Assembly (NCBI GenBank): GCA_910584975.1
Contig: CAJUEA010000001.1
Location: 205,651 to 269,650 of the forward strand
Source of the DNA: an uncultured Christensenella sp.
GTDB lineage: Bacteria; Bacillota; Clostridia; Christensenellales; UBA3700
Direction of reading: 5' to 3'
DNA: 64,000 nt
The position numbers and the translations under genes are program-made. Below, one piece after another: positions 3,077 to 64,000 of this stretch (the stretch's first letter is position 1; the number at the start of each line of letters is the position of its first letter). The notes under the pieces were generated by a model. It did not search any database. It saw only the letters and a program-made list of their open reading frames with translations, and was not told where the DNA came from.

Positions 3077-3571
3077 ATGATAGCACAAGGCAGAGTTTTT
3101 AAATATGGCGACAATGTTGATACGGATGTTATTATTCCTGCAAGATATCTGAACACTCAGGACCATGCAGAGCTTGCAAGTCATTGTATGGAGGATATTG
3201 ATATCAATTTTGCAAAAGAGGTTAAGTGTGGTGACATTATCGTTGGTGGTAATAATTTTGGATGTGGTTCGTCAAGGGAACACGCTCCTATAGCAATCAA
3301 AGCAAGTGGAGTAAGCGTTGTCATTGCAAATTCATTTGCAAGAATTTTTTATAGAAATAGCATTAATATCGGTCTTGCGATTGTTGAGTGTGATATGGCT
3401 GAAAAAATCAACAACGGTGATATTGTTAAAGTTGATTTTTCCAAAGGCATTGTGTACAACATAACTCAAAATTGGCAGTGTGATGTGCCTCCTTTCCCTG
3501 AGTTTATTCAAAATATTATTCAAAACAATGGTTACATTAATAGCATAAAAAAGAGTTTAGGTGAGGTTTGA
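3077..3571 (+). CDS. leuD: 3-isopropylmalate dehydratase small subunit
   Basis: Start moved to the ATG at 3077, which follows GGAGGA at 3063-3068. [15 protein letters not shown] and GCGSSREHA motifs. Confidence 0.88.
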
Positions 3572-3572
3572 T

Positions 3573-4637
3573 ATGGAAAAACGCATATGTGTGATTGAAG
3601 GAGACGGAATTGGTCCTGAAGTTATGGCACAAGCAATCAAGGTGCTTGATAGAGTGGCAGAAAAGTTTTCTCACAAGTTTAACTACGAATATCGTCTTGC
3701 AGGTGGCTGTGCTATTGACAAAACAGGTTGCTGTTTGCCAAAGGAAACACTTGATTGTGTTTTGAGCACGGATAGTACTTTGCTTGGTGCTGTAGGTGGA
3801 AACAAATGGGATAGTCAACCTGCGAACAATCGTCCTGAAAAGGCCTTGCTTGGCATAAGAAAAGCTATGCAAGTTTATGCCAATTTGCGTCCACAAAAAT
3901 TGTATCCACAGCTTTCAACTCCTTTAAGGGCAGATGTAATTGCTGATGGCATTGATATTATGATTGTGCGTGAACTTGTAAGCGGCGTTTATTTTGGAGA
4001 GCACAACCAGTGTGTTGAGAATGGAGAGAATGTTGCAGTAGACATTATGAAATACACTGAGACAGAAATCAAAAGAGTTGCAAAAGTTGCTTTTGAACTG
4101 GCTGAAAAAAGAAGTGGCAATTTGTTGCTTGTGGATAAAGCCAATGTTCTTGCAACTTCAAAATTGTGGCGTAAAGTTGCAAGTGAAATGTCAGCTAATT
4201 ATCCAAATGTTAATCTTTCATTTATGTATGTGGATAATTGTGCAATGCAAATAATCAAAAACCCTTCAAAAATCGATGTTATTTTGACGGAAAATATGTT
4301 TGGCGACATCTTGAGCGATGAGGCAAGTGCTTTGACCAGCTCTATTGGCATGGCAGGATCCGCATCTTTAGGAGATGGCAAAAGAGGCTTTTATGAGGCA
4401 ATTCATGGTTCTGCTCCAGATATAGCAGGTCAGGATATTGCAAATCCTATCGGTATGATTTTGAGCGTGGCAATGATGTTAAAAAATTCTTTTGATATGC
4501 AAAAAGAGGCTCAATGTGTGGAAAATGCTGTGCAAAAATTTATTGAAAATGGTTATCGCACAAAGGATATTTTGCAAGAGAATACGACTTTGGTAAAGTG
4601 TAGTGAGGCAGGAGATATCATTTGCAGTTATATTTAA
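3573..4637 (+). CDS. leuB: 3-isopropylmalate dehydrogenase
   Basis: ICVIEGDGIGPEV N-terminus and isocitrate/isopropylmalate dehydrogenase-like body. Start at the internal ATG 3573 after GGTGAGG. Confidence 0.9.
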   Translation: MEKRICVIEGDGIGPEVMAQAIKVLDRVAEKFSHKFNYEYRLAGGCAIDKTGCCLPKETLDCVLSTDSTLLGAVGGNKWDSQPANNRPEKALLGIRKAMQVYANLRPQKLYPQLSTPLRADVIADGIDIMIVRELVSGVYFGEHNQCVENGENVAVDIMKYTETEIKRVAKVAFELAEKRSGNLLLVDKANVLATSKLWRKVASEMSANYPNVNLSFMYVDNCAMQIIKNPSKIDVILTENMFGDILSDEASALTSSIGMAGSASLGDGKRGFYEAIHGSAPDIAGQDIANPIGMILSVAMMLKNSFDMQKEAQCVENAVQKFIENGYRTKDILQENTTLVKCSEAGDIICSYI

Positions 4638-4924
4638 CAAAGACATTAACTGACTTAAAATTTAATGTTAAAAAAGTCTAATTGCATTTTGCATCTAGCT
4701 TTAATAATCATAAAAAAGCAAAAAAAATTTACATATGAACAAACTTGCATTTTTTTGAATAAAGTGTTAATATAAATATAGATAGTTGATATTTTGTCAA
4801 TATTTTTCAAAGTTTGTCATATAATGTTTAATGTCGAATTTGAAAAAATTATAAATCAGACTAATCAATCAATTTATCATAAAATTACCAATTAAGCTTA
4901 TTTAAATTAAGAGAAGGATTGACT

Positions 4925-5536
4925 ATGAAAAAGAAAATTATTTGTCTTCTAGTTGTTTTAATGTTAGCAGTTTGTGCAATCGGGCTTAGTGCTTGTGATT
5001 TGTTTGGTGGAAATGATGGAAATGGCACACAAACTGAACAGCCTGATGGTAATGCCAATAAATTTGATGATAATGCAAGTAGTGGTCAAAAAGCACCAAA
5101 ACTTTCTTACTTGTACAAGTTTGATATTTCAGCATTGCAATTTTCTGATATGATGTATCCAAGTGAAGAAACTGCTGATAATGCAGATTTGGCTGTAAAA
5201 TATGAAGAGTATTTGTGGAAATTGCAAGAATATCAGCTTTATGTAAATGAGATTAATGCGAAATATACAGGTTCTCAATTTGCTTTTTATGATAACAACA
5301 CTGCTGTTTTGACATTTGCAGATGGTAGCACTGCAAATTATCTGTATAGGAAAACTTCAGAATATGATCCTGAAACTAGAACAACTATTTATTACATAGA
5401 TATTCTTACAATAGAAGATGGCAAATATGTGATAGAGCTTTACGCTGTTTTGGACGAAGAGGTTATGTTGTTCAGCACACAAATGGATGATGATGGAATG
5501 TTCAATATGTATTTGCAATTTGTAGTGAGCAAGTAA
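4925..5536 (+). CDS. putative lipoprotein
   Basis: Signal peptide MKKKIICLLVVLMLAVCAIGLSAC with an LSAC lipobox. GAGAAGGA RBS. No recognisable domain. Confidence 0.6.
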   Translation: MKKKIICLLVVLMLAVCAIGLSACDLFGGNDGNGTQTEQPDGNANKFDDNASSGQKAPKLSYLYKFDISALQFSDMMYPSEETADNADLAVKYEEYLWKLQEYQLYVNEINAKYTGSQFAFYDNNTAVLTFADGSTANYLYRKTSEYDPETRTTIYYIDILTIEDGKYVIELYAVLDEEVMLFSTQMDDDGMFNMYLQFVVSK

Positions 5537-5585
5537 AAAATATTGTTCCAATAAAGTTTTTTGAAAATGTAATATTTATTCCATG

Positions 5586-5620
5586 AAACAAGCCGTGATT
5601 AAGTCACGGCTTGTTTGTTT
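5586..5620. terminator. bidirectional intrinsic terminator
   Basis: Perfect 13-bp stem aaacaagccgtga/tcacggcttgttt with loop ttaag, flanked by A and T runs, between convergent genes. Confidence 0.8.
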
Positions 5621-5654
5621 AAAAATTTTGCATTTAATTTATTTTATTATAAAA

Positions 5655-5909
5655 TCATTCGTAACATTCAATTTCCATTGAGTCATAGTCAAAGCTTTCC
5701 ACAAAATCATCGGGTATAAATCTGTGAACATTAAATTCCTTAAAATGTTTGAAATGAATTTGCATTGTAACAGGAGAGGAGATTTCCAAAAGTTCAGCAA
5801 CTTTACGGAGCATATTTTCATAGCTATCAAAATTCAAAGGCATATTGTCTGCATACAATGTGTCTTTAACATTTTTTCCGTCAGTGATTAATCTTGCCCA
5901 AATTTTCAT
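5655..5909 (-). CDS. hypothetical small cytoplasmic protein
   Basis: 84-aa ORF with a GAGGA RBS 9 nt upstream. No motif recognised. Confidence 0.5.
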   Translation of the reverse strand: MKIWARLITDGKNVKDTLYADNMPLNFDSYENMLRKVAELLEISSPVTMQIHFKHFKEFNVHRFIPDDFVESFDYDSMEIECYE

Positions 5910-5967
5910 AAACTTATTTCCTCAGTTGTATTTTGTGTAGGAAAGTGCTTTTTAAACATATTAATTG

Positions 5968-5996
5968 CAAAAAGGTTGCAAGCTACAACCTTTTAT
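5968..5996 (-). terminator. intrinsic terminator after the 6065-6700 gene
   Basis: Stem aaaaggttg/caacctttt with a 7-nt loop, then a U-run on the minus strand. Confidence 0.6.
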
Positions 5997-6064
5997 CTGT
6001 TATTTTTCATTAAATTTTCAATTATAATAAAATTAAAGAATAACAATAGATCACATTTTCAATT

Positions 6065-6700
6065 TTAGATAACCATATAATAGATAAAAGTGCCCAAAAG
6101 TCCAAGTGCTGCCACTCCAAAAATAATGGCGAACTTGACACACGATTTGCTTTGTTGTGTACAATTTTTGCAACCACAGCGGTTGTCAATAGCTTTGCCT
6201 CTCACTAAATAAGCAACAGCAAGAGAAATTAAACCAATGGCTAAAAGTAAAAAACTTAAAGGATGTCTGACTTTGCCTATGTTGAAAAGTGATATAATAA
6301 TTGCTGCCAAAATAAATGGAATGCAAATAAATTGAAGATTTTTCAGCCTATTATCCAGTTTGCTGTCCAACTTACAATGTTTGTTTTGGCTACTTTCAGC
6401 ATTGTCACTTTGATTGCTTTCAATCGGTTGATTATCGCATATTGTAGGGATATTTTCAGAGGATGAGTTTTCACCTAAAGTGTTTGATTGTGCAAAATAA
6501 GTGTTTCTATTCATAAAGTTGTCATTTATGTTATTTTCAGAAACTGGCACTTGTTCAACCATATTTTCAGTGATGTTTGTTTGCTTGTTATGTACAAAAT
6601 CATTGATATTGCTTTGTGCATCAACATTCAAACTATCATCCAAGCTATTTTGAGTTTCAAAATCATTTGTATTTTGAGATTTGTTATCCAAATTGTTCAT
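6065..6700 (-). CDS. membrane protein with an Asn/Gln/Ser-rich low-complexity N-terminus
   Basis: 211 aa. C-terminal half has 3 predicted hydrophobic helices. Directly downstream of the UPF0210 gene. Confidence 0.55.
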   Translation of the reverse strand: MNNLDNKSQNTNDFETQNSLDDSLNVDAQSNINDFVHNKQTNITENMVEQVPVSENNINDNFMNRNTYFAQSNTLGENSSSENIPTICDNQPIESNQSDNAESSQNKHCKLDSKLDNRLKNLQFICIPFILAAIIISLFNIGKVRHPLSFLLLAIGLISLAVAYLVRGKAIDNRCGCKNCTQQSKSCVKFAIIFGVAALGLLGTFIYYMVI

Positions 6701-6726
6701 ATAATTGTTATTACCTATTTTTTAAA

Positions 6727-8076
6727 TTAGTTTTTAAGGCTGTGTAGTGGAGCAGGAATTCTTCCACCTCTGCCAATAAATTTTGCAGGGGAATTTTTGT
6801 TTACTGCAATAATTGGTGCGTGTCCTAAAAGACCACCAAACTCTGCATAATCGCCCACACCTTTGCCAATAACAGGAATAACTCTTACGGCAGTAGTTTT
6901 CATATTTACCATACCAATTGCAGATTCGTCTGCGATAATACCACTGATAACTTCGGCAGGAGTATCACCCGGAATTGCAATCATATCAAGTCCAACAGAG
7001 CAAACACAAGTCATAGCTTCAAGTTTTTCAATGTTAAGGTCGCCACATTCAGTTGCACGGATCATTCCAGCATCTTCACTTACAGGGATGAAAGCTCCTG
7101 AAAGTCCACCAACAGCAGAGCTTGCCATAATTCCACCTTTTTTAACTGCATCGTTTAGCATTGCAAGACAAGCAGTTGTTCCACAAGCCCCCACGCTTTC
7201 AAGCCCGATTTCCTCAAGAATATGAGCAACGCTGTCGCCCATAACTGGAGTAGGAGCAAGAGACAAGTCGACAATACCACAATTAACACCAAGTCTTTTT
7301 GCTGTTTCACGGCATACAAGTGAACCAACTCTTGTGATTTTGAAAGCAGTTTCTTTTATTTTTTCAGCAACTTGAACAAGATCTCCATTTACGCTTTCAA
7401 GTGCATGTTTAACAACACCCGGACCACTAACACCAACATTCAAAGTAAGGTCGTTTTCGCCAACGCCATGGAAAGCACCTGCCATAAAAGGATTGTCCTC
7501 AACAGCATTGCAAAAAACAACAAGCTTTGCGCAAGCAAGACTATCTTTATCTGCAGTTTTTTCTGCGCATTCACGAATTATTTTTCCCATCAACGCAACA
7601 GCATCCATATTTATGCCTGTTTTTGTTGAGCCGACATTGACAGAAGAGCACACCTTGCCAGTGGTTGAAAGTGCCTCTGGAATAGACATAATAAATTGTT
7701 TTTCATATTCAGTCATACCTTTGTGAACCAAAGCAGAATAGCCACCCAAAAAGTCAATGCCAATTTCGTTTGCAGCTTTGTCAAGTGCACGGATAACTTC
7801 CAAATGACCACCATTGTTTGCAGTGATAAGGCTGACAGGTGTAACGCTTACACGCTTGTTGACAATAGGAATCCCCAATTCGCTGCTAAGTTGGTTTGCA
7901 GTTTTAACCAAATTTTTTGCTGATTTTGTAATTTTATCATAAACTTTCTCAGCAGTACGCTTTGGTGTGTCCGCAATACAATCAAGCAATGATATGCCAA
8001 GGGTAGTGGTGCGCACATCCAAATGTTGCTGATTTATCATTTGAATAGTTTCAAAAATTTCTTTATTATTAATCAT
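6727..8076 (-). CDS. UPF0210 (DUF711/PFL-like) family protein
   Basis: About 449 aa. [24 protein letters not shown]-terminus is typical of UPF0210. Start set at ATG 8076 because GAGG abuts the TTG at 8082. Paired with the ACT protein upstream. Confidence 0.8.
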
Positions 8077-8090
8077 TTTCAACCTCTAAA

Positions 8091-8357
8091 TTAAAGTTTG
8101 TGCATAGCATTAAAAATATCTTCGTGTTGAACGCGAATAGTAACTCCCAGTTCTTCTCCAGCTTTTGTCAAAATGTTGCTAAGTTTGGTAACATCGCTGT
8201 TTGCACTGATAGAAACCATCATAATCATAGTGAAATAATCTTGCATAATTGTTTGAGAAATGTCCTCAATATTAATATCCTGTTCGTATAAAATATTGCT
8301 GACTTTTGCAATAATACCTTTTTTGTCCTTGCCAATTACAGAAACAATCGCTTTCAT
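8091..8357 (-). CDS. ACT domain protein (UPF0237 family)
   Basis: 88 aa. MKAIVSVIGKDKKGIIAKVS ACT-fold signature. AAGAGG RBS. Conserved partner of UPF0210. Confidence 0.8.
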   Translation of the reverse strand: MKAIVSVIGKDKKGIIAKVSNILYEQDINIEDISQTIMQDYFTMIMMVSISANSDVTKLSNILTKAGEELGVTIRVQHEDIFNAMHKL

Positions 8358-8538
8358 AATAACCTCTTTTTCTTAAATTAAAATGTTGCACAATCAAATT
8401 GTCGAAAGTGTACCTATTTATTGTAACATATAATAAAAATAAACACAAGATATTTGTCAGAAAAAATAAATTTTCTTGCGTATAATTTTGCATTATTGAA
8501 AGATAATAATGGTGTAACAATGTTACAAGGAGGGGAAA

Positions 8539-8814
8539 ATGATTACAGTAATAGCAATGATATTAATGATTATTGGTGCATTCAACTGGTTTTCAGTTGG
8601 TGTGTTTGATTTTAACTTCGTGGATTGGATTTTCACATCAAACGCATATATCGGTGCCAGAATTTTGTATGGTATCATAGGTGTAGCTGCGTTGTGGTTG
8701 GTATTCTATCTTGCTTACAATAAGTTTAGTGGTAGAAGAATTAACGCACCAGAAAGTGTTGCTGGCAGAAATCGCCATATGAGCAACAATGTGTCAAGTT
8801 CAGAGGAGTATTAA
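8539..8814 (+). CDS. DUF378 family small membrane protein
   Basis: 91 aa. IGAFNWFSVGVFDFNFV motif. AAGGAGGGG RBS. Confidence 0.75.
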   Translation: MITVIAMILMIIGAFNWFSVGVFDFNFVDWIFTSNAYIGARILYGIIGVAALWLVFYLAYNKFSGRRINAPESVAGRNRHMSNNVSSSEEY

Positions 8815-8843
8815 TTTTTCTTTGAGCAGACATTGCAAATATA

Positions 8844-8877
8844 CCGACAAAGGCAAAAGTCTTTGTCGGATTTTTTT
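8844..8877 (+). terminator. intrinsic terminator
   Basis: Stem ccgacaaag/ctttgtcgg followed by a T7 run. Confidence 0.8.
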
Positions 8878-9018
8878 GTCATCATTGCTTGAAAAAAAGT
8901 GTTTATTGTGATAGAATACTAATATAATGATAATTTATGTTTGATGTAAGGCAAAGATTTTTTAAGATTTTATTCGCCTAACCATATCATTAAGCAAATT
9001 TATTATATTGGAGTACAA

Positions 9019-9738
9019 ATGGATATTAAGTGTAAAAATTGTGGTCAAATGATTGACGAAAACGACAAGTATTGCAAATATTGTGGTTATCTTATACCTC
9101 AAAAAGAGGAGGAAATCCCCCTTTCAAAGCTTGCCTTGCAGGATAAAGTGCAAGAGAGCAAAGCAACAATTTATGAGGATGAAATTGTTGGTAGCAGTAA
9201 CTGGAGTTTTGCAGATTTGGCAGTGGTAAAAGAAGGGGACAAAAGCTCGTTATATTCAAAAAGTGTTGTTTATACAATACTTTGCATCTTGCTAGGTGTA
9301 GCGTGTATGATTGCTGCTTTTTTGTGCAAATTTATGATTACAAACAATATGGTTGCGTTGATTTGCCTTTTGATTTTTATGTTTGCAATGATAGTATCTT
9401 ATGGCTTTGCACTGGAGAGATATTACAACACAAAAGGACTTAAAAATCTTGAACAAGACAAAATAACTGTGAAGAAATACGGATTTAAAAAACCTGCAGA
9501 AATACTTATTGACGGATATGTTTTTGAGCTTGTAATAGACAAAGTTTGTCCTGTGTGTGAGGGAGATGTTATTGGAGATTTGCACATCGAAAAGATTGAA
9601 AAAAAGATTGTGGTTGTGTGCAATATAAACAGAAAACACATATTTCAAATTGATGAAAACGCATTTGTATCGGCTCTAAGAAATGGGCAAATTGAAATGC
9701 GAAACAAAGGCAAAAACAAAAATCAACAAAGCAAATAA
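9019..9738 (+). CDS. zinc-ribbon membrane protein (hypothetical)
   Basis: N-terminal CKNCG...CKYCG zinc ribbon, two TM helices, and a second CPVCEG motif. Confidence 0.55.
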   Translation: MDIKCKNCGQMIDENDKYCKYCGYLIPQKEEEIPLSKLALQDKVQESKATIYEDEIVGSSNWSFADLAVVKEGDKSSLYSKSVVYTILCILLGVACMIAAFLCKFMITNNMVALICLLIFMFAMIVSYGFALERYYNTKGLKNLEQDKITVKKYGFKKPAEILIDGYVFELVIDKVCPVCEGDVIGDLHIEKIEKKIVVVCNINRKHIFQIDENAFVSALRNGQIEMRNKGKNKNQQSK

Positions 9739-9750
9739 ATTTAAAAATAT

Positions 9751-9767
9751 GTCAAAAATCGGTATTA
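9751..9767 (+). repeat. recurrent 17-nt motif copy (gtcaaaaatcggtatta)
   Basis: Identical 17-mer to 24136-24152. Intergenic. Confidence 0.7.
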
Positions 9768-55515: not shown

Positions 55516-55867
55516 GGGGATGTTTCGGATTCGACAAGTGGGTGTGAGATTGTGTAAGCGTGCCGTAGGTTCGTCTACGATAAAACGATCGTTTAAATTA
55601 AACGCAAAAAATAATAATCAATTGGCTTTCGCTGCGTAATTAGCGAGCCTGTCGCGCCTGTCGTCCTATCCGATAGGAGTGCGGCATCATTAAGAATAGG
55701 AAGGTCTTTTTGCCAGTGGTGTGGGGCAGAAAGATAAATCAGCACCTCATCAAAATGTAGCCTGTGCAAAAGGCGACATCGCGAAAAATTCAAAATTTGC
55801 ACTTCGCACGAAGAAAGCACAGTTAATCCCCGTTTGGACACGGGTTCAACCCCCGTCATCTCCACCA
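55516..55867 (+). ncRNA. ssrA: transfer-messenger RNA (tmRNA)
   Basis: 5' GGGGATG pairs with 3' CATCTCC plus ACCA. T-arm CGGGGGTTCAACCCCCG. Tag ORF GCA AAA AAT AAT AAT CAA TTG GCT TTC GCT GCG TAA encodes AKNNNQLAFAA. Confidence 0.95.
55853..55867 (+). repeat. attL-like direct repeat (3' end of ssrA)
   Basis: ccgtcatctccacca, identical to 60625-60639. Confidence 0.8.
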
Positions 55868-56169: not shown

Positions 56170-56198
56170 TTGCAAACTTATTATTGTTGTGATATAAT
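56170..56198 (+). promoter_or_regulatory. sigma-A-type promoter of the islet cassette
   Basis: TTGCAA 56170-56175, 17-nt spacer, TGaTATAAT ending at 56198. GGAGGA RBS at 56214. Confidence 0.6.
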
Positions 56199-56222
56199 AA
56201 TAAAAAATACATCGGAGGAAAT

Positions 56223-58703
56223 ATGAGAGAGTTTCTAGCATATACAACAAAATTGCAAAATAGTAATTATAATCATATTGTTTTGATAAAAGAAATTGTT
56301 GACGATAGGCTTGTAAGTATTAGTGATGAAGATTATGCTTTAATTATGCCTGACCATAAACAAATTAGAGTTGATAACCAAGAAAAATGGCTTTTTAATG
56401 ATGATGAGAAAGCGATGATACCGGAAATTGAATTTTGCAAATATGATAATGGTTTGCTAATTTTGAAATATGATGAAACTGAGGCAAAAGGCGATATTTA
56501 CGCCCAAACAAAGTTCTTGGATAATTGTTCTTTGTTGCCGACAAATAAGTTTTTAAGAATAATACAAATAGAAAAATCAATAGATGATATAATGAAGAGT
56601 AAGTCTAATAGAATTGTGGACATACCATCATTTAGTAATTCAATAAATAGCAATATAATTTTGGAAATAGACGGTGTTTATTATGGTCCTATAAAAATAA
56701 GACCTTTTTATTCTAAAGATGGCAAAGTGCTAATCGATTTAAGTAAAGAGTACCAAATTAAAAAAATATCTTCAGATAAAGTTTCTGCTAAAATTGTAAA
56801 AACTAAAGTGGATAGAACTGCTGATGAAAGGATTGGTTTTTTTTGGAAAGAAGAAGATTGTTTTACGGATGAAGCTAGCCTAATAAGATTTTATGATCTT
56901 GAAAAAGAAAAAGAAAAAATTGACAAAATGCTTGATAAAATTGCTACATTAGGCAAAATTGATTTTTCTAAATTGCAAGCAGCTTTTACACAAATTAACC
57001 AAGAGGAATACAGTACAGATGAGTTAAACTCAATAAAATCTGTTTTTGAAAAAGGACAATTAAATTACGCTCAATTTTCCGGAATTGCACAATTGTTTTT
57101 CAACGAATTGGATGATGAGAAAAAAAAATTAATCAATAAATTTTTTGAAGACAATCCTACTGTAATAGAAGGAGAAAAGAAGAAGTATCTTCTAGAGAGC
57201 GACAAAGCAATTGCTGAACAAAATGAGAAATTTTCTAAACTATCAAACGACATTAAAAGTAAGGAAAAACTATTAGACGAACTTAATATTCACAAAAAAA
57301 ATATTGAAGACGAATTAGAACAAATTAAAGTTAATAAGCAAAAATTGTTGGAAGAGCAAGCTTCATTAAACAACGAAAAAATTAATCAGCAAAAAGCATG
57401 CATCGACGAATTAAAATCGGCCATAACAGATCTGGATAAACAAAAAGAAGAAAAACAAGAGGATATTGAAGCTAAAAATGCTAGATTAGTGGAATTGCAG
57501 AAAGACTTGCGTCGATATAAAACTGATTTAAATGGTTTTATTGATCAAATTATTAAAGAAAAAATTTCCGATGATGTTCGCGACCTTTTAATTAATAAAA
57601 TTGAGTTTAAAAATAGTAATAACGATATGGAAGATGATGCTTATAATACTACCAATGATGTGGAAAATTTTATTTCACTATTTGTTGATAATATAAGATC
57701 AGCTAGACCAGCTTATAGCTCGGATTTTATCAAGAATATTTTAATATGCATTTCGCAAAACTTTGCAACTATTTTTGCAGGACCTCCAGGAAGTGGAAAA
57801 ACCAGTATTTGTAATTTGCTTGCAAATGAATTTGGTGTTTATGATAAAGACAGATTCAGTATTGTTGAGGTGGAAAAAGGATGGACTACACCTAGAGATT
57901 TGATAGGATATTTTAATCCTTTTACGAATGCTGTTGAATCAAAGAACCCTAAATTTTTCAAACAGCTACAGATTAGTAATGAAGAATGTGAAAAACAAGT
58001 GACTGATGCTCCTGTAAATTTAGTAGTTTTGGATGAGGCAAATTTAAGTCCTATTGAATACTATTGGTCTTCATTTTCTTCAATCTACGATGATGTATGC
58101 AATGGTAATGTTGAACGACAAGTACATATAAATAATCAAAATAAATTTAAAATCGCAAAAACATTGAGGTTTTTGGGAACTATAAATTATGATTATACAA
58201 CAGAAATGTTATCTGAACGATTTTTAGATCGTGTATGGATTATTAGGTTAGATAATAATTTGTCAATTGATAATATAAACGGCTCAACTATTAAGATTGC
58301 AAATCAAATCCCTATTAATTTTTATGATATTATTGAATATATGACACCTAACACCACCGATTGTTTAGATGAAGATTTGGAAGTAAAATTGGGAAAAATA
58401 ATTGCACATTTAAAAGACATGAAAGTTAATGTTAGTTATAGGGCTTTAGAAAAAATTAAAAAATATTTAATAATCGCTGTTAACAAAGGAATTATTGAAG
58501 AGAAAGATTTAGCATTAGATTATGCTATTTTGCAGAAATTGATAATTTTGATAAATGGTTATGGTGAAGAATATGGCGAAAAAATAAATTTATTAAAAGA
58601 TTTGTGTAATGATTTTTCTTTAAAGAATACAGTTTTAGAACTTGATAAAATTATTGAGAATGGCAAAAAGAATAATGATAACTATTCGTATTTTGGTGTT
58701 TAA
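56223..58703 (+). CDS. McrB-like AAA+ (AAA_5-type) NTPase with an unknown N-terminal domain and a long coiled coil
   Basis: 826 aa. Walker A FAGPPGSGKTS (nt 57780-57806), Walker B VVLDEANLS (D604-E605), then LRFLGTINYDYTTEMLSERFLDRV. Residues ~215-450 are heptad-like K/E/L/N/Q-rich. Confidence 0.7.
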   Translation: MREFLAYTTKLQNSNYNHIVLIKEIVDDRLVSISDEDYALIMPDHKQIRVDNQEKWLFNDDEKAMIPEIEFCKYDNGLLILKYDETEAKGDIYAQTKFLDNCSLLPTNKFLRIIQIEKSIDDIMKSKSNRIVDIPSFSNSINSNIILEIDGVYYGPIKIRPFYSKDGKVLIDLSKEYQIKKISSDKVSAKIVKTKVDRTADERIGFFWKEEDCFTDEASLIRFYDLEKEKEKIDKMLDKIATLGKIDFSKLQAAFTQINQEEYSTDELNSIKSVFEKGQLNYAQFSGIAQLFFNELDDEKKKLINKFFEDNPTVIEGEKKKYLLESDKAIAEQNEKFSKLSNDIKSKEKLLDELNIHKKNIEDELEQIKVNKQKLLEEQASLNNEKINQQKACIDELKSAITDLDKQKEEKQEDIEAKNARLVELQKDLRRYKTDLNGFIDQIIKEKISDDVRDLLINKIEFKNSNNDMEDDAYNTTNDVENFISLFVDNIRSARPAYSSDFIKNILICISQNFATIFAGPPGSGKTSICNLLANEFGVYDKDRFSIVEVEKGWTTPRDLIGYFNPFTNAVESKNPKFFKQLQISNEECEKQVTDAPVNLVVLDEANLSPIEYYWSSFSSIYDDVCNGNVERQVHINNQNKFKIAKTLRFLGTINYDYTTEMLSERFLDRVWIIRLDNNLSIDNINGSTIKIANQIPINFYDIIEYMTPNTTDCLDEDLEVKLGKIIAHLKDMKVNVSYRALEKIKKYLIIAVNKGIIEEKDLALDYAILQKLIILINGYGEEYGEKINLLKDLCNDFSLKNTVLELDKIIENGKKNNDNYSYFGV

Positions 58704-60371
58704 ATGAACTTGAAGTTATATTGTGACAATACCATCATTGATATTGATTTTTGGAAAGAATATGAGCCTGGAGAAATTAGTGAATTAAACGATGATATTA
58801 TTTTCTATGATAATAAACAATATTCAATTTGTTTAGATGAAGAAGATACTTATGAATTATATGTGAATAATGAATTTGTTGAAGATCTAGCAAGCAATAT
58901 GAATTTCTCAAAGTTTTTTGGGAATGTTCAATTTTATTTGAAAGATAAAAAGACACAAAAAATTTTTTCTAGTGATTATTATTGTGTTTCTAGCGATAAA
59001 ATTTCTAGCGAAGATTTTGAAATTATGCTTAATGATATTTTAGAAAATTGTCCAACGCAAGTGTTAGTGAAATGCTTTGGTATGCATAATTCAGAATTGA
59101 ATCCAAACAAGAAAATATCATCAATAAACACAAAAATTAAAGCAATAGAAAACATTATCGTTTATATGGTCAAAAATTTGCATCATTTTGAAGTTAATGC
59201 AAAATCAAAACTTAGTCCAAAATATAAAAAGGTTGATTATTCAAATATTAGCGATATTGACTCAATAACGATTAGTCATATGGCAGAAAATTGCGATGAG
59301 TGGTTTAGGACATCAACGAGTGGAATAAAAATAAATAAAAAATATTTTTTGCCTAATAAAGTGATGACAAAAATAAGCGTTGACAATAAGGCAATATATG
59401 AAAACAAGTCAATTGTTAATTTTTTAAATTATTTAAGAAACGAGTTGTTATTAATAGAAAAAACTTTAGAAAATGCGAAAAATGGATTAATTAGGCATTA
59501 TAGAAAACTAAAAAAAATATATCCAAATTCAAATATTGTAGAATCGTATACTACATTTTATTACGAAAAATTAAATGATAAAGCTAGTGCCTTGAAAAAA
59601 GAATTGACGAAAATACTAATGAGGTTACAGAAATCATTTAGTTGTTGTGCTGATAATGGTTATTGCTTGCCAGCATACACACATATTTTTAGACAAATAC
59701 CTATGTATAGGCAAATGTTTTTATTTATGTTGGATTATGATAATTTAGGTGAAAATTTGGAAACAAAAATTAATTATTTTGTTGATATAATACCTGCATA
59801 TACGATATATGAGCTTTATTGTTTGAATCGAATTATTGAAGGAATTTCGATTCTTGGCGGTCAAAATAAAAATTTCTTTAATTTGGATAACGATGGGTTA
59901 ATTTTTAGTAGTTATTTAGAAATTGATGATGTAGTAATAAAACTTTATTATGAGCCTAAAATCATGAAGTCTCAGCAGAGTTTAAGTTTGGATGTGGCTG
60001 ACTATTATATCGATAGTCAAAATAATATTCAGCTTAAAAAGGTTGCTAAACAAGGATTTGTCCCTGATTTTGTTATCGAAATATTAAAAGATAATAAAAT
60101 CAATTATGTTATACTAGATGCTAAATTTAGCAAAAGGAGTTCTGTTGACAAATATCATCTTTCAAATATTATCAACAAATATGTGGTAAGTATTATTCCA
60201 AAAGATAGCTATACTTTTAAATTAATGACAGGAATAATGTGTTTAAACGGTGATAAAACAATAGTTAGAAATCAAAGAGCTAGTTTAGGATATGAGCAAA
60301 TTGAAATAATGCCTATTAATATCAATAAAAATAAAATTGATGTTAAAGATATATTAAATATGATATGTTGA
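58704..60371 (+). CDS. McrC/DUF2357-like protein with a C-terminal PD-(D/E)XK nuclease motif
   Basis: 555 aa. The ATG immediately follows the upstream TAA. VPD455FVIE...VILD472AK474F motif (nt 60066-60125). Confidence 0.65.
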   Translation: MNLKLYCDNTIIDIDFWKEYEPGEISELNDDIIFYDNKQYSICLDEEDTYELYVNNEFVEDLASNMNFSKFFGNVQFYLKDKKTQKIFSSDYYCVSSDKISSEDFEIMLNDILENCPTQVLVKCFGMHNSELNPNKKISSINTKIKAIENIIVYMVKNLHHFEVNAKSKLSPKYKKVDYSNISDIDSITISHMAENCDEWFRTSTSGIKINKKYFLPNKVMTKISVDNKAIYENKSIVNFLNYLRNELLLIEKTLENAKNGLIRHYRKLKKIYPNSNIVESYTTFYYEKLNDKASALKKELTKILMRLQKSFSCCADNGYCLPAYTHIFRQIPMYRQMFLFMLDYDNLGENLETKINYFVDIIPAYTIYELYCLNRIIEGISILGGQNKNFFNLDNDGLIFSSYLEIDDVVIKLYYEPKIMKSQQSLSLDVADYYIDSQNNIQLKKVAKQGFVPDFVIEILKDNKINYVILDAKFSKRSSVDKYHLSNIINKYVVSIIPKDSYTFKLMTGIMCLNGDKTIVRNQRASLGYEQIEIMPININKNKIDVKDILNMIC

Positions 60372-60451: not shown

Positions 60452-60481
60452 AAAAAAGCACCAGTGTAGGTGCTTTTTTTG
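60452..60481 (+). terminator. intrinsic terminator of the cassette
   Basis: Stem agcacc/ggtgct with loop agtgta, followed by a T7 run. Confidence 0.75.
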
Positions 60482-60624
60482 TTATAGTTATCATACTAGG
60501 GGGGGGGACGCAAGGGAAAGCAGTTGCCAGTGGCAAGTGCGACCGAAGCAGGCGTGATAGCAAGGGTTTAGCCCCGAGCAAGCTATGCTTGCGAAGTGCA
60601 CATCAGTGCATTGTGGAGTAACCA

Positions 60625-60639
60625 CCGTCATCTCCACCA
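60625..60639 (+). repeat. attR-like direct repeat
   Basis: ccgtcatctccacca, second copy of the ssrA 3' end. Confidence 0.8.
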
Positions 60640-60688: not shown

Positions 60689-60924
60689 CAACTAACAAAT
60701 TGCCTTGATTGATAAATAAAAAATACTGCCTGTGGCAAATGAAAATATTTAACCTTAAATTACATTGCCCACAAAACAACAATATTGACACCTTAAAAAA
60801 ATATGCTATCCTAAATATATAAAATAATGCTATCTTATTTGTTGGCATTAGTCTTTTAAATTAGTAAATTTTAATGAGACAATCACAATATAATGCAATG
60901 TTTTTGTTGACGGAGGATTTAATT

Positions 60925-61512
60925 ATGAGTTTGGAACATAGGGCTTTTATTTTTGATGATGAAAGATTTGACAGCGAGCTGCGCAATTTGCTGTTGAATG
61001 CAGGATTATCAAATAATATCGATAAAATAAAGAATTTCATTGAACAAAATAAGTAAGAAATTAAAAATCCTTATTATGGTGGAATTATTGATTAAAACTG
61101 GGAAGACACGATGTCTGCAAAGGATGTTCAAGAGTATGCCGATTTTGCAATGACGGCTTATTACGAACCAGACGAAGATATGGGACTTGCTTATGCATGG
61201 GATGCAGTGATAAGCATTTTGAGATCAATTAAATATAAAAAAGCAGAGTATGCTGTGCTTGGTAAGCCTATAAAGAAAAAAGATTTTTGTGTGGATCCTG
61301 GTTGTTGTGGGTTGGGTATTGTCAAGGCTTCAGATGTGGGAAAAATATTTGAACAGCTTTCCGAGCTACAAGATGAGTTCAATGAAATGGCTGAGGAGTT
61401 CGAAAGTGATGACGATATAGAATGCGATGATATAATCTCTGCTTTCGAAGACCTTTTGTCATTGTATGAATCAGCTATGGACGAAGGTTGTGGACTATTG
61501 CTTACATTTTGA
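60925..61512 (+). pseudogene. ORF interrupted by two in-frame TAA codons (or two small adjacent ORFs in the same frame)
   Basis: ATG 60925 follows GGAGGA. TAA at 61054-61056 and 61093-61095 lie in the same frame as the 61111-61512 ORF. Confidence 0.35.
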
Positions 61513-61744: not shown

Positions 61745-62095
61745 ATGAAAATAGGAGAAGTGTGTTTATTGACTAATGATGTTGTTCGTTTGTCGAATTT
61801 TTATAAAATAGTATTTAATATTGAAAACAATTGCAATGATGAAGTCCATCAATTTATTTTCTCACAAGAAACAACACTTGCTATTTATAACGATGGAACC
61901 CAGAGAAAAAATAACTTCCAAAATATTTGCTTGGCATTTACGGTTGATGATGTTGATAGTGAATTTGAAAGATTAAAAACACTTGGTGTTGAGATCGTGG
62001 CACCACCTACGATGCGACCTTGGGGTGCAAAAAATATGAGCTTTTTTGACCCAGATAAAAATTTGATTATTTTTAGAAGTTTTCCTAATAAATAA
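61745..62095 (+). CDS. VOC (glyoxalase/bleomycin-resistance) family protein
   Basis: 116 aa. AAGGAGAGG RBS. C-terminal PWGAKNMSFFDPDKNLI motif typical of the VOC fold. Confidence 0.7.
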   Translation: MKIGEVCLLTNDVVRLSNFYKIVFNIENNCNDEVHQFIFSQETTLAIYNDGTQRKNNFQNICLAFTVDDVDSEFERLKTLGVEIVAPPTMRPWGAKNMSFFDPDKNLIIFRSFPNK

Positions 62096-62178
62096 ATTGA
62101 AATTTGCACAATCAATTAATCACTATTGATTTTATTTTTCAAAAATATAATTTATTATATTATTAAATACATAACTGT

Positions 62179-63216
62179 TCATATGAATTTTTCAATAGTT
62201 AAACTTAAAATTATTTTAAATATGTCGGATTGTTTATAATTCATTTTTTGCATAGCATAAGTAAAAGAAGAATGTTTGCAAATAAATGGCATAGTGGCTA
62301 TGTCAAATAAAAATTCTTCACCTTTATCATTTATACGAAAATCTGCTCTACCATAACAACTAATTCCTAAAGCTGGAACTATCTTGTTTAATATTTTTTG
62401 AAATCTATTTGGGCAATTAGATTCAAACAAAGAAAAAGTATAGTCATTTTTTGCTGATGAATTAGCATCTAAAAAAGTGTTATTGTTAATTAGAATTTCA
62501 ACTGGTGGTAAAGCAATAACTTGTTCTTTCCATACAAAGAAGGGACATTCTATTTCTTTACCTTCAATAAATTCTTGAATTATCATTGTTTGATTATTTA
62601 TAAAACTTAATTCATCATAATTAAAATCTTTATAATTATAAATATTTTCAGAAATTCCAATACTGCCACTTTCTGCAATTGGTTTAATTATAATTTTCTT
62701 TAAATTATTTGTGGGTGGTTTGGTTCCTATCCAGTTTTTATTTGGTAAATAAGCATATGTTTTGGGACAATTAACATTTAATTGAGATAAAAATTTATTA
62801 TATACAAATTTATTTCTACATAGTGATTGTACAAAAGATCCCGAACCAGTATAAGGTATTTTTAACAAATTACAAAATGCTGGAATTAAGCTTTTTTTAC
62901 CTTCTTTCAAACCATTTCTTGCGAAATTAAACACTATTATATCTTGTTGATCTAATTTTTTATTTAAAATATCAGACATGAACTTTAACTCGTTGAAATA
63001 TACTATATAATTCATTTTCAATTCTTTAATTGAATTTAAAATGTCATTATATTCTTGCTCAGTAAATTTTTCTATGTCGATTGCATCTTCAAGTTGAATT
63101 CCAATATCATCTGAATAACCTTGTACATTTACAAGCAAAACAATAATTTTAGTTATTTGCTTATTAATTTTCTCACTATAATTATATAATTCAGAAATTT
63201 CATTATTTTTTTTCAT
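62179..63216 (-). CDS. divergent ATP-grasp enzyme (D-Ala-D-Ala ligase-like)
   Basis: 345 aa. IIKPIAESGSIGIS, QEFIEGKEIE and GRADFRI motifs in Ddl order. The E-x-N Mg site reads D-I-A. Confidence 0.65.
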   Translation of the reverse strand: MKKNNEISELYNYSEKINKQITKIIVLLVNVQGYSDDIGIQLEDAIDIEKFTEQEYNDILNSIKELKMNYIVYFNELKFMSDILNKKLDQQDIIVFNFARNGLKEGKKSLIPAFCNLLKIPYTGSGSFVQSLCRNKFVYNKFLSQLNVNCPKTYAYLPNKNWIGTKPPTNNLKKIIIKPIAESGSIGISENIYNYKDFNYDELSFINNQTMIIQEFIEGKEIECPFFVWKEQVIALPPVEILINNNTFLDANSSAKNDYTFSLFESNCPNRFQKILNKIVPALGISCYGRADFRINDKGEEFLFDIATMPFICKHSSFTYAMQKMNYKQSDIFKIILSLTIEKFI

Positions 63217-63222
63217 AAGGCC

Positions 63223-63765
63223 TCATATTTTCCTAATATTTTTGTTGATTTCGGATAAAAATTTATCGTTAATAATAATTGGTTCTTTTTTGAGTTCTTT
63301 AAGTATTAAATCATTTAATTTTGTTGCATTAGTTAAATTTAATGGTTTTTGTGTTACATATAGAGTTTTTGCTTCAGGGCAATGAGTATGTCTACCATAA
63401 GATAATAAAATGCCATGACTAAAAAAATATTTTTTTGAATAATCATTTTCAAAGTTTTTTGAATTAAGTAATATAATTAAACAAATATCGTTATCTTCTT
63501 CACTTCTTACATTGATAAAGATAGCATTTTCTTCAATTTCATATGTTCCTTTATAATTATATTTGTTATTATCATCATCATCAATATAATCAAAATTTAT
63601 AAGTATTTCATTATTTTCATATTTGAGATGAGATGTGTCTATTGTGTTAACGTCTAATGTGTTAGCTGTATAAATATATAAGTTTGATAAATATTTTATA
63701 ATTTTTTTATCATCAGTATTTTGACTAGTTTGATTTTGTGTAACAGAATTAAAAATATCTCCCAT
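63223..63765 (-). CDS. hypothetical protein
   Basis: 180 aa. AAAGGAG RBS. Its stop lies 6 nt before the ATP-grasp start. No motif recognised. Confidence 0.55.
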   Translation of the reverse strand: MGDIFNSVTQNQTSQNTDDKKIIKYLSNLYIYTANTLDVNTIDTSHLKYENNEILINFDYIDDDDNNKYNYKGTYEIEENAIFINVRSEEDNDICLIILLNSKNFENDYSKKYFFSHGILLSYGRHTHCPEAKTLYVTQKPLNLTNATKLNDLILKELKKEPIIINDKFLSEINKNIRKI

Positions 63766-63767
63766 GG

Positions 63768-64000
63768 TTAATCTCCTTTTAAATTTTTACAGTAGTTTAA
63801 GAAATCGCGAACCTCATTTACAATATTTTTGATATTGTATTCAGTTTTATCCCCTTTATTAAATTCTAATAAATATACATATAAATTATATATATTAGCC
63901 ATTAATTGTTTTTCTTTTTTAAATATAATAAAATCCGATGAGTTTACAAGTGATTGTAGACATGAAAAATTAATATGTTTTGTATTATTATCAATTTTTA
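63768..64000 (-). CDS. hypothetical protein, 5'-truncated by the window edge
   Basis: Hand translation of the minus strand gives an open frame ...KHINFSCLQSLVNSSDFIIFKKEKQLMANIYNLYVYLLEFNKGDKTEYNIKNIVNEVRDFLNYCKNLKGD*. Stop at 63768-63770, 2 nt before the next ATG. Confidence 0.5.
   Translation of the reverse strand, partial: KIDNNTKHINFSCLQSLVNSSDFIIFKKEKQLMANIYNLYVYLLEFNKGDKTEYNIKNIVNEVRDFLNYCKNLKGD

Follow-up and report, generated by a model that had tools for sequence, protein, structure and literature searches.

The stretch of DNA studied here (the window, 64,000 nucleotides from positions 205,651 to 269,650 of contig CAJUEA010000001.1 of an uncultured Christensenella sp.) carries, next to its transfer-messenger RNA (tmRNA) gene, two adjacent open reading frames (ORFs) that we describe as a candidate McrBC-type restriction cassette. 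The first, on the plus strand at 56223-58703, encodes a protein of 826 residues that we call B; the second, on the plus strand at 58704-60371, encodes C, of 555 residues, whose ATG follows the stop codon of B immediately, with zero spacer between the two ORFs. Upstream of B lie a promoter-like TTGCAA-17-TATAAT with a TG upstream (56170-56198, +; a consensus match only, from a consensus scan) and the Shine-Dalgarno sequence GGAGGA (56214-56219, +), which was read from the sequence. On the 3' side of the C gene lies a hairpin that resembles an intrinsic terminator, with a T run behind it (60452-60479, +). The two genes are thus framed as an operon by a promoter-like site, a ribosome-binding site and a terminator-like hairpin.

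With the C-terminal 357 residues of B as query, we retrieved a family of related proteins at 34-39% identity over nearly the full length. The family scan, made on one genome per species, gave about 420 related loci, and the locus statistics reported below come from the best 80 of these, of which 79 were inspected. In these loci the median B protein is 871 residues long, and the Walker A motif stands at about residue 554. Since the length of B and the position of its Walker A motif (residue 520) are near these values, the window protein is typical of the family. We also considered that B of the window might carry about 300 extra N-terminal residues, and rejected this because the early relatives of 330-615 residues were fragments from short contigs. 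A full-length word-index homologue search was dominated by coiled-coil words and returned fragments and distant proteins.

The NTPase of B spans residues 480-826 (57660-58700, +), where the full-length AlphaFold model, computed with a 56-sequence family alignment, reaches a predicted local distance difference test score (pLDDT) of about 90. In this region Pfam returned only weak generic AAA matches. In a 56-sequence alignment of the NTPase, which includes NxDE-type proteins, we observed that G520, G523, G525, K526, W554, D604, E605, N655, D657, R670 and R740 are invariant. The Walker A motif GPPGSGKT (57780-57803, +) begins at residue 520 and the Walker B motif LVVLDEAN (58020-58043, +) at residue 600, the latter region being conserved as LDEANLSPxEYYW. 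The sequence GTINYDYTTEMLSERFLDR contains N655-Y-D657 (58185-58193, +), which takes the place of the McrB signature in the alignment, in the reduced form NxD. When the family profile was compared with the PDB, the best matches were to E. coli McrB (6hz4, 6ut6 and 7vsr), with E=6e-9 across about 155 residues. The aligned part starts at Walker A and ends at the N of NxxD, as an indel at this point would lead one to expect. Foldseek with the full-length model gave McrB as top match as well (6hz4_E, E=1e-9). Judged from alignment and model, the NTPase of B is of McrB type with an NxD signature, and the preliminary description of this DNA was right to name it so.

C is a homologue of McrC with a beta-looking N-terminal region, and it is homologous to the products of the genes that follow the NTPase gene in related loci (E=1e-21 to 1e-32); the C gene stands directly downstream of B in 70 of the 79 loci. 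Pfam indicates a DUF2357-like region (58896-59480, +; E=7e-4) and, further downstream, a nuclease domain of the PD-DxK type (59805-60155, +; PDDEXK_7, E=3e-3), both under the gathering score. An alignment of 60 partner proteins showed that E233, Y335, E370, P454, D455, D472, K474 and Y493 are invariant; in the YEN motif around E233, Y232 and N234 are conserved in 97-98% of the proteins, and K492 in 97%. Because the PD...DAK catalytic residues, which include D455 (60066-60068) and D472-A-K474 (60117-60125), are invariant, the nuclease of C looks active. Neither a CxxC motif (zinc ribbon) nor a heptad run above threshold was detected in C.

Between its N-terminus and the NTPase, B had been credited with a coiled coil of about 230 residues. 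Residues 215-450 contain only 1 proline and 5 glycines, and we scored them with a simple heptad measure of our own in place of COILS or MARCOIL, whose thresholds were taken from shuffled sequences. Only at residues 327-439 does this score lie above the 99.9th percentile of whole-protein shuffles; the heptad register is almost unbroken from residue 321 to residue 449, and the observed mean was reached by none of 100 composition-matched shuffles. In the full-length AlphaFold model, residues 313-432 form one continuous helix (pLDDT 71-86) and residues 227-310 five short helices (pLDDT 39-54). We therefore delimit a helical linker at residues 216-312 (56868-57158, +), where the heptad score is weak, and a coiled-coil helix at residues 313-449 (57159-57569, +). 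The coiled coil of B is genuine and far above chance, is preceded by the helical linker, and measures about 115-135 residues, that is, about half of the length first proposed. Most B proteins of the family have such a run, which covers at least 56 residues over threshold in 55 of the 79.

The remaining part of B, residues 1-215 (56223-56867, +), had been reported to hold no nameable motif. Our searches agree: Pfam, NCBIfam, PHROGs, PADLOC and the PDB sequences all gave nothing, and no known DNA-reader was recognised. With residues 1-330 as query, phmmer gave 0 matches among 1.84 billion representative proteins, a weak null since B's own cluster was not returned either; the representative library may lack this 98%-identity cluster. 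The range covered by the preliminary description, 56223-57770, corresponds to B residues 1-516, all of which precede Walker A (G520PPGSGKT), and both peptides that it quoted were found, at residues 146-173 and 336-433.

We observed that the N-terminal part of about 250 residues is conserved throughout the family, by means of a jackhmmer profile that was grown from one member, L091, under strict inclusion; a lenient run was set aside because coiled-coil drift had contaminated it. Residues 1-215 of B score 24.9 bits against the L091-derived profile, a value reached by none of 3000 shuffles, the best of which gave 11.5 bits, and 26.3 bits against a 60-sequence profile of the module built without the window protein. 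The module is present in 75 of the 79 B proteins, and one subgroup of the family retains just its first 125 residues or so. In the alignment of the modules a Gly-Pro pair is invariant and corresponds to G155-P156 of B (56685-56690), within DGVYYGPIKI; D212 and L219, where the helical linker begins, are near-invariant. By these profile scores residues 1-215 of B are a divergent copy of a family-wide domain of about 250 residues and not an orphan. For 61 modules of the family the PDB sequences gave no match and Pfam none that was consistent, and a word-index search with the module alignment gave 5 short matches only.

In two loci with a B protein devoid of the module, an unannotated ORF lies directly upstream of B and matches the module profile: in L009 an ORF of 306 residues (4594-5514; E=5e-32) and in L011 one of 266 residues (5198-5998; E=5e-26). 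The module therefore occurs split as well as fused. The relation between the N-terminus of B and these upstream ORFs was resolved with the 60-sequence profile and not with a two-sequence profile made from the two ORFs, against which the score of the N-terminus did not stand out from chance (it was matched by 156 of 2000 shuffles). As for the structure of the module, an AlphaFold model of residues 1-232, computed with near-identical sequences only as input, has a mean pLDDT of 38, and the full-length model stays below 50 over residues 1-231. Both models place a hairpin at residues 145-157, around the GP motif; this hairpin speaks for the beta-rich N-terminus suggested earlier, whereas the very low confidence of the models speaks against relying on it.

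The cassette lies in a small islet next to the tmRNA gene ssrA (55516-55867, +), which was identified by ARAGORN, with the tag peptide AKNNNQLAFAA, and by Rfam (RF00023, 160 bits). The gene ends at 55867, 355 nucleotides upstream of the B ORF, and the islet starts right behind this 3' end. Its last 20 nucleotides, AACCCCCGTCATCTCCACCA (55848-55867, +), recur 4.77 kilobases downstream with one mismatch, as AACCACCGTCATCTCCACCA (60620-60639, +; 19/20 identical by repeat search and alignment), which marks the right edge of the islet. Across the B and C ORFs the G+C content drops from about 0.35 to 0.26-0.28, and between the repeats the low-G+C islet of 4.77 kilobases holds the B and C genes only, an integrase being absent. 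The tmRNA gene is a classic integration site, and the islet looks like a degraded remnant, or else a satellite-like insertion, at ssrA. We looked for an empty tmRNA site in the JGI metagenomes and obtained no match. Most simply, the association of the cassette with tmRNA is positional and gives no support to the tmRNA-targeting idea put forward in the CoCoNuT paper (Bell et al. 2024, eLife 13:RP94800).

Two further ORFs adjoin the islet but lie outside it, at 60874-61056 (60 residues) and 61111-61512 (133 residues). The second has a weak match to DUF1877, to the C-terminal part of the model only, and the two may be a single gene broken by a frameshift. The lowest G+C content of the window (0.228) is found at 62001-64000, where there are minus-strand genes; they include an ATP-grasp, D-Ala-D-Ala-ligase-like protein (62179-63216, minus strand) and an unannotated ORF of 180 residues (63223-63765).

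The family is widespread. Its hosts include gut and rumen Bacillota, Treponema, Sutterella, Anaerobiospirillum, Capnocytophaga and others, and we found it on 98 plasmids, mostly of Klebsiella, Citrobacter, Bacillus and Enterobacter; a search of a phage collection gave none. As an example, the Klebsiella pneumoniae plasmid NZ_CP058760.1 (IncFIB/IncR; locus L095) carries at 3274-9752 a family cassette with a B of 839 residues and a C of 603 residues, flanked by the genes for a tyrosine integrase and for a TIR-domain protein. This B has the N-terminal module and an NQDE motif, and its protein cluster is present on 765 contigs. In the text of a paper on Klebsiella McrBC (PMC12456054), we found no tie between the McrBC described there and the family. 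The flanks of 70 loci hold no conserved third gene, and the neighbours are a mixture of integrase, methyltransferase, transposase and housekeeping genes.

On the basis of these data we estimate, with a probability of about seven in ten, that B and C form a self-contained McrBC-type (Type IV-restriction-like) nuclease cassette driven by nucleoside triphosphates (NTPs), of the NxD coiled-coil branch and carried as mobile defence cargo. By analogy, defence against phages or plasmids is most likely its role. In the CoCoNuT paper, the shortening to NxD defines a major branch of McrB, inside which a large clade is defined by fusion to a long coiled coil (Bell et al. 2024, eLife 13:RP94800). The CoCoNuT lead of the preliminary description holds at this branch level, through the NxD GTPase, the fused coiled coil and the McrC partner. 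We also observed that a motif TTxxLSxxxLDR around NxD is common to B and to the Type I-A CnuB sequences in the supplement of the CoCoNuT paper. In addition, the PADLOC candidate-defence model PDC-M26A matches B (E=5e-25) and members of the family (1e-25 to 1e-30), although no PADLOC model matches C.

Compared with McrBC of E. coli K-12, the cassette shares an McrB-type AAA+ NTPase, an McrC with DUF2357 and PD-DxK, and a presumed hexamer-plus-nuclease mechanism. The E. coli protein, however, has NxxD in place of NxD, and a small DNA-reader joined directly to its GTPase, where B has a coiled coil of about 120 residues and an unnamed module of about 215; the similarity of the cores is only 22-48 bits. 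Among the published classes, CoCoNuT Type I-C fits the cassette layout best, a likeness judged on the published layout of that type, whose reference proteins are GFD85286.1, MBV0932852.1, KLN96646.1 and MBO4998275.1. Type I-C consists of a CnuB with CSD, YTH, coiled coil and McrB and a CnuC with IG, McrC_N and PD-DxK (Bell et al. 2024, eLife 13:RP94800). The window cassette resembles it as a two-gene operon whose B has N-terminal domains, then a fused coiled coil, then an NxD McrB-like GTPase devoid of a helical insert, and whose C is simple: a domain at the N-terminus comes before DUF2357 and a PD-DxK that looks active, and a zinc ribbon is absent. It differs in that the N-terminal module of about 215-250 residues is not demonstrable as CSD plus YTH. 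The cassette had been thought far more minimal than its relatives, and therefore perhaps a reduced or distinct subtype. This is not supported: according to the same paper Types I-A and I-C, too, have no genes besides those for the two homologues of McrB and McrC (Bell et al. 2024, eLife 13:RP94800), so the cassette is not unusually minimal, and B has a length and layout typical of a family that shares its N-terminal module.

The other classes were excluded. Type I-A has a helical insert of about 100 residues between Walker B and NxD, which B lacks: from D604 to N655 there are 51 residues in B and about 110 in TBC54486.1 and P0016. C likewise has neither a coiled-coil/CSD insertion nor a zinc ribbon, the GTPase core of B scores just 59-78 bits against Type I-A, and the N-terminal domains are unrelated by profile. 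Type I-B has its coiled coil on a separate protein, CnuA, and none in CnuB, whereas in the window it is part of B and no gene lies between tmRNA and B. Types II and III were set aside because neither the islet nor its flanks hold a helicase CnuH, an effector CnuE or an Hsp70-like module, and none of these is enriched beside the family loci; more broadly, no HEPN, UPF1-like helicase, Hsp70-like, Vsr or PLD partner gene was found within the islet or flanks. CoCoPALM, which is marked by an FtsB-like transmembrane helix on B, was excluded as well, since B of the window has no transmembrane segment (its top 19-residue Kyte-Doolittle window, 1.29, is located in the ATPase core) and no signal-peptidase-like neighbour.

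A different arrangement was seen in locus L093. At 5084-9649 it carries a three-gene cassette of a more distant NxD relative, P0008 (628 residues), in the order of a 305-residue protein (helical domain, coiled coil and C-terminal domain), the NTPase and a 592-residue DUF2357 protein. This is the layout given for CoCoNuT Type I-B.

Several observations weigh against our preferred explanation. In B and most of the retrieved relatives NxD is followed by Y or H, as against the E or D that is usual according to the CoCoNuT paper, and this also separates B from Type I-C. The GTPase core of the family scores 46-83 bits against Type I-A, one Type I-B-like protein and other NxD representatives. Compared with one another, the latter reach 66-233 bits, so that by bit score the family core appears as a clade of its own. 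The profile of the N-terminal module shows no relation to the N-terminal domains of Type I-A or Type I-B-like CnuB (hhalign probabilities of 0.4% and 0.1%, respectively), and its AlphaFold model, at a pLDDT of 38, is too poor for a fold call. The match of PDC-M26A is partial (residues 313-621) and weaker than for Type I-A- and I-B-like proteins (1e-47 to 1e-50). Finally, in the literature searched we found no experiments on members of the family or on any CoCoNuT, and we infer the function.

The strongest alternative, which we regard as a serious one though clearly behind our preferred explanation, is the following: the family would be a separate, unclassified lineage of NxD coiled-coil McrBC, and its module a new sensor instead of CSD plus a YTH-like domain. 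Such a lineage would agree with the outgroup position of the GTPase core, with the lack of profile similarity of the module to Type I-A or I-B-like N-terminal domains and of any consistent Pfam match or any PDB match for the 61 modules, and with the motif surroundings, which are LDEANLS and NNDHTTE in the family as against LDEMNLAR and NxDE[ST]T. It would also agree with the occurrence of the module as a separate upstream gene, an arrangement not found in the sections of the CoCoNuT paper that were consulted. On the other hand, a census of about 34,000 McrBC systems is unlikely to have missed so common a family, and Type I-C, as described in that paper, is exactly a two-gene system with N-terminal domains, coiled coil and McrB. 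Moreover at least one of its references, MBO4998275.1, may, from its accession prefix alone, come from a metagenome-assembled genome of gut or rumen origin, which would be the habitat of the family. The more specific proposal, that the family is a distinct type whose module of about 250 residues has a sensor fold of a new kind, with no relation to CSD, YTH or EVE readers, and recognises something besides a modified base, we hold to be slightly less probable still, and on balance unlikely.

If the cassette belongs to the McrBC-like NxD coiled-coil branch as we prefer, its mode of action can be proposed by analogy with the structural work on E. coli McrBC, as cited in the CoCoNuT paper. The NTPase domains of B would form a hexameric ring, which C would enter, stimulating hydrolysis. 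The coiled-coil stalks, which probably pair between protomers, would hold the N-terminal modules outward, where these would recognise a feature of foreign nucleic acid, and NTP hydrolysis would then license cleavage by the nuclease of C.

The PD-DxK fold is typically DNA-specific. We lean towards DNA as the substrate of the cassette, because its sole nuclease is an intact PD-DxK and an RNase partner is absent. With the same layout, the target could instead be RNA (tmRNA, tRNA, rRNA or phage transcripts) and the outcome abortive infection in place of cleavage of invading DNA, which we judge rather improbable, and more so than a separate lineage. In favour of RNA, the authors of the CoCoNuT paper argue that the ancestor of the branch already targeted it (Bell et al. 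2024, eLife 13:RP94800), and the N-terminal module is not recognisable as a DNA-reader domain. Against an RNA target, the catalytic residues of the only nuclease are conserved, HEPN, helicase and Hsp70-like partners are missing from the window and from the family neighbourhoods, and no RNA-binding domain was detected in library, profile or structure comparisons.

That B could be a housekeeping ATPase of MoxR-like or SMC-like type and no defence nuclease, as the database names of some relatives ("MoxR-like ATPase", "chromosome segregation protein SMC", besides "AAA family ATPase" and "hypothetical protein") and weak SMC and JetC matches on the coiled coil might suggest, is very improbable, since SMC- and MoxR-type matches are confined to the coiled coil or P-loop, McrB comes first in both the structure and the profile comparisons, a gene for DUF2357 plus PD-DxK is closely linked to that of B in 70 of the 79 loci, and the distribution is patchy and mobile.

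To our knowledge, coiled-coil NxD McrBC systems are known from computation only, and for none of them has the feature sensed, the nucleic acid cut (DNA or RNA) or the role of the coiled coil been demonstrated. The cassette belongs to this computationally known kind and to a common family, found in gut anaerobes and on plasmids of Klebsiella, Citrobacter and Enterobacter. As the family is compact, with two genes that are easily cloned, and its N-terminal module is fused in some members and split in others, it offers a convenient start for first experiments. For the window itself, two genes of the kind named "hypothetical protein" or "AAA family ATPase" are re-annotated as a probable McrBC-type restriction cassette at a tmRNA islet.

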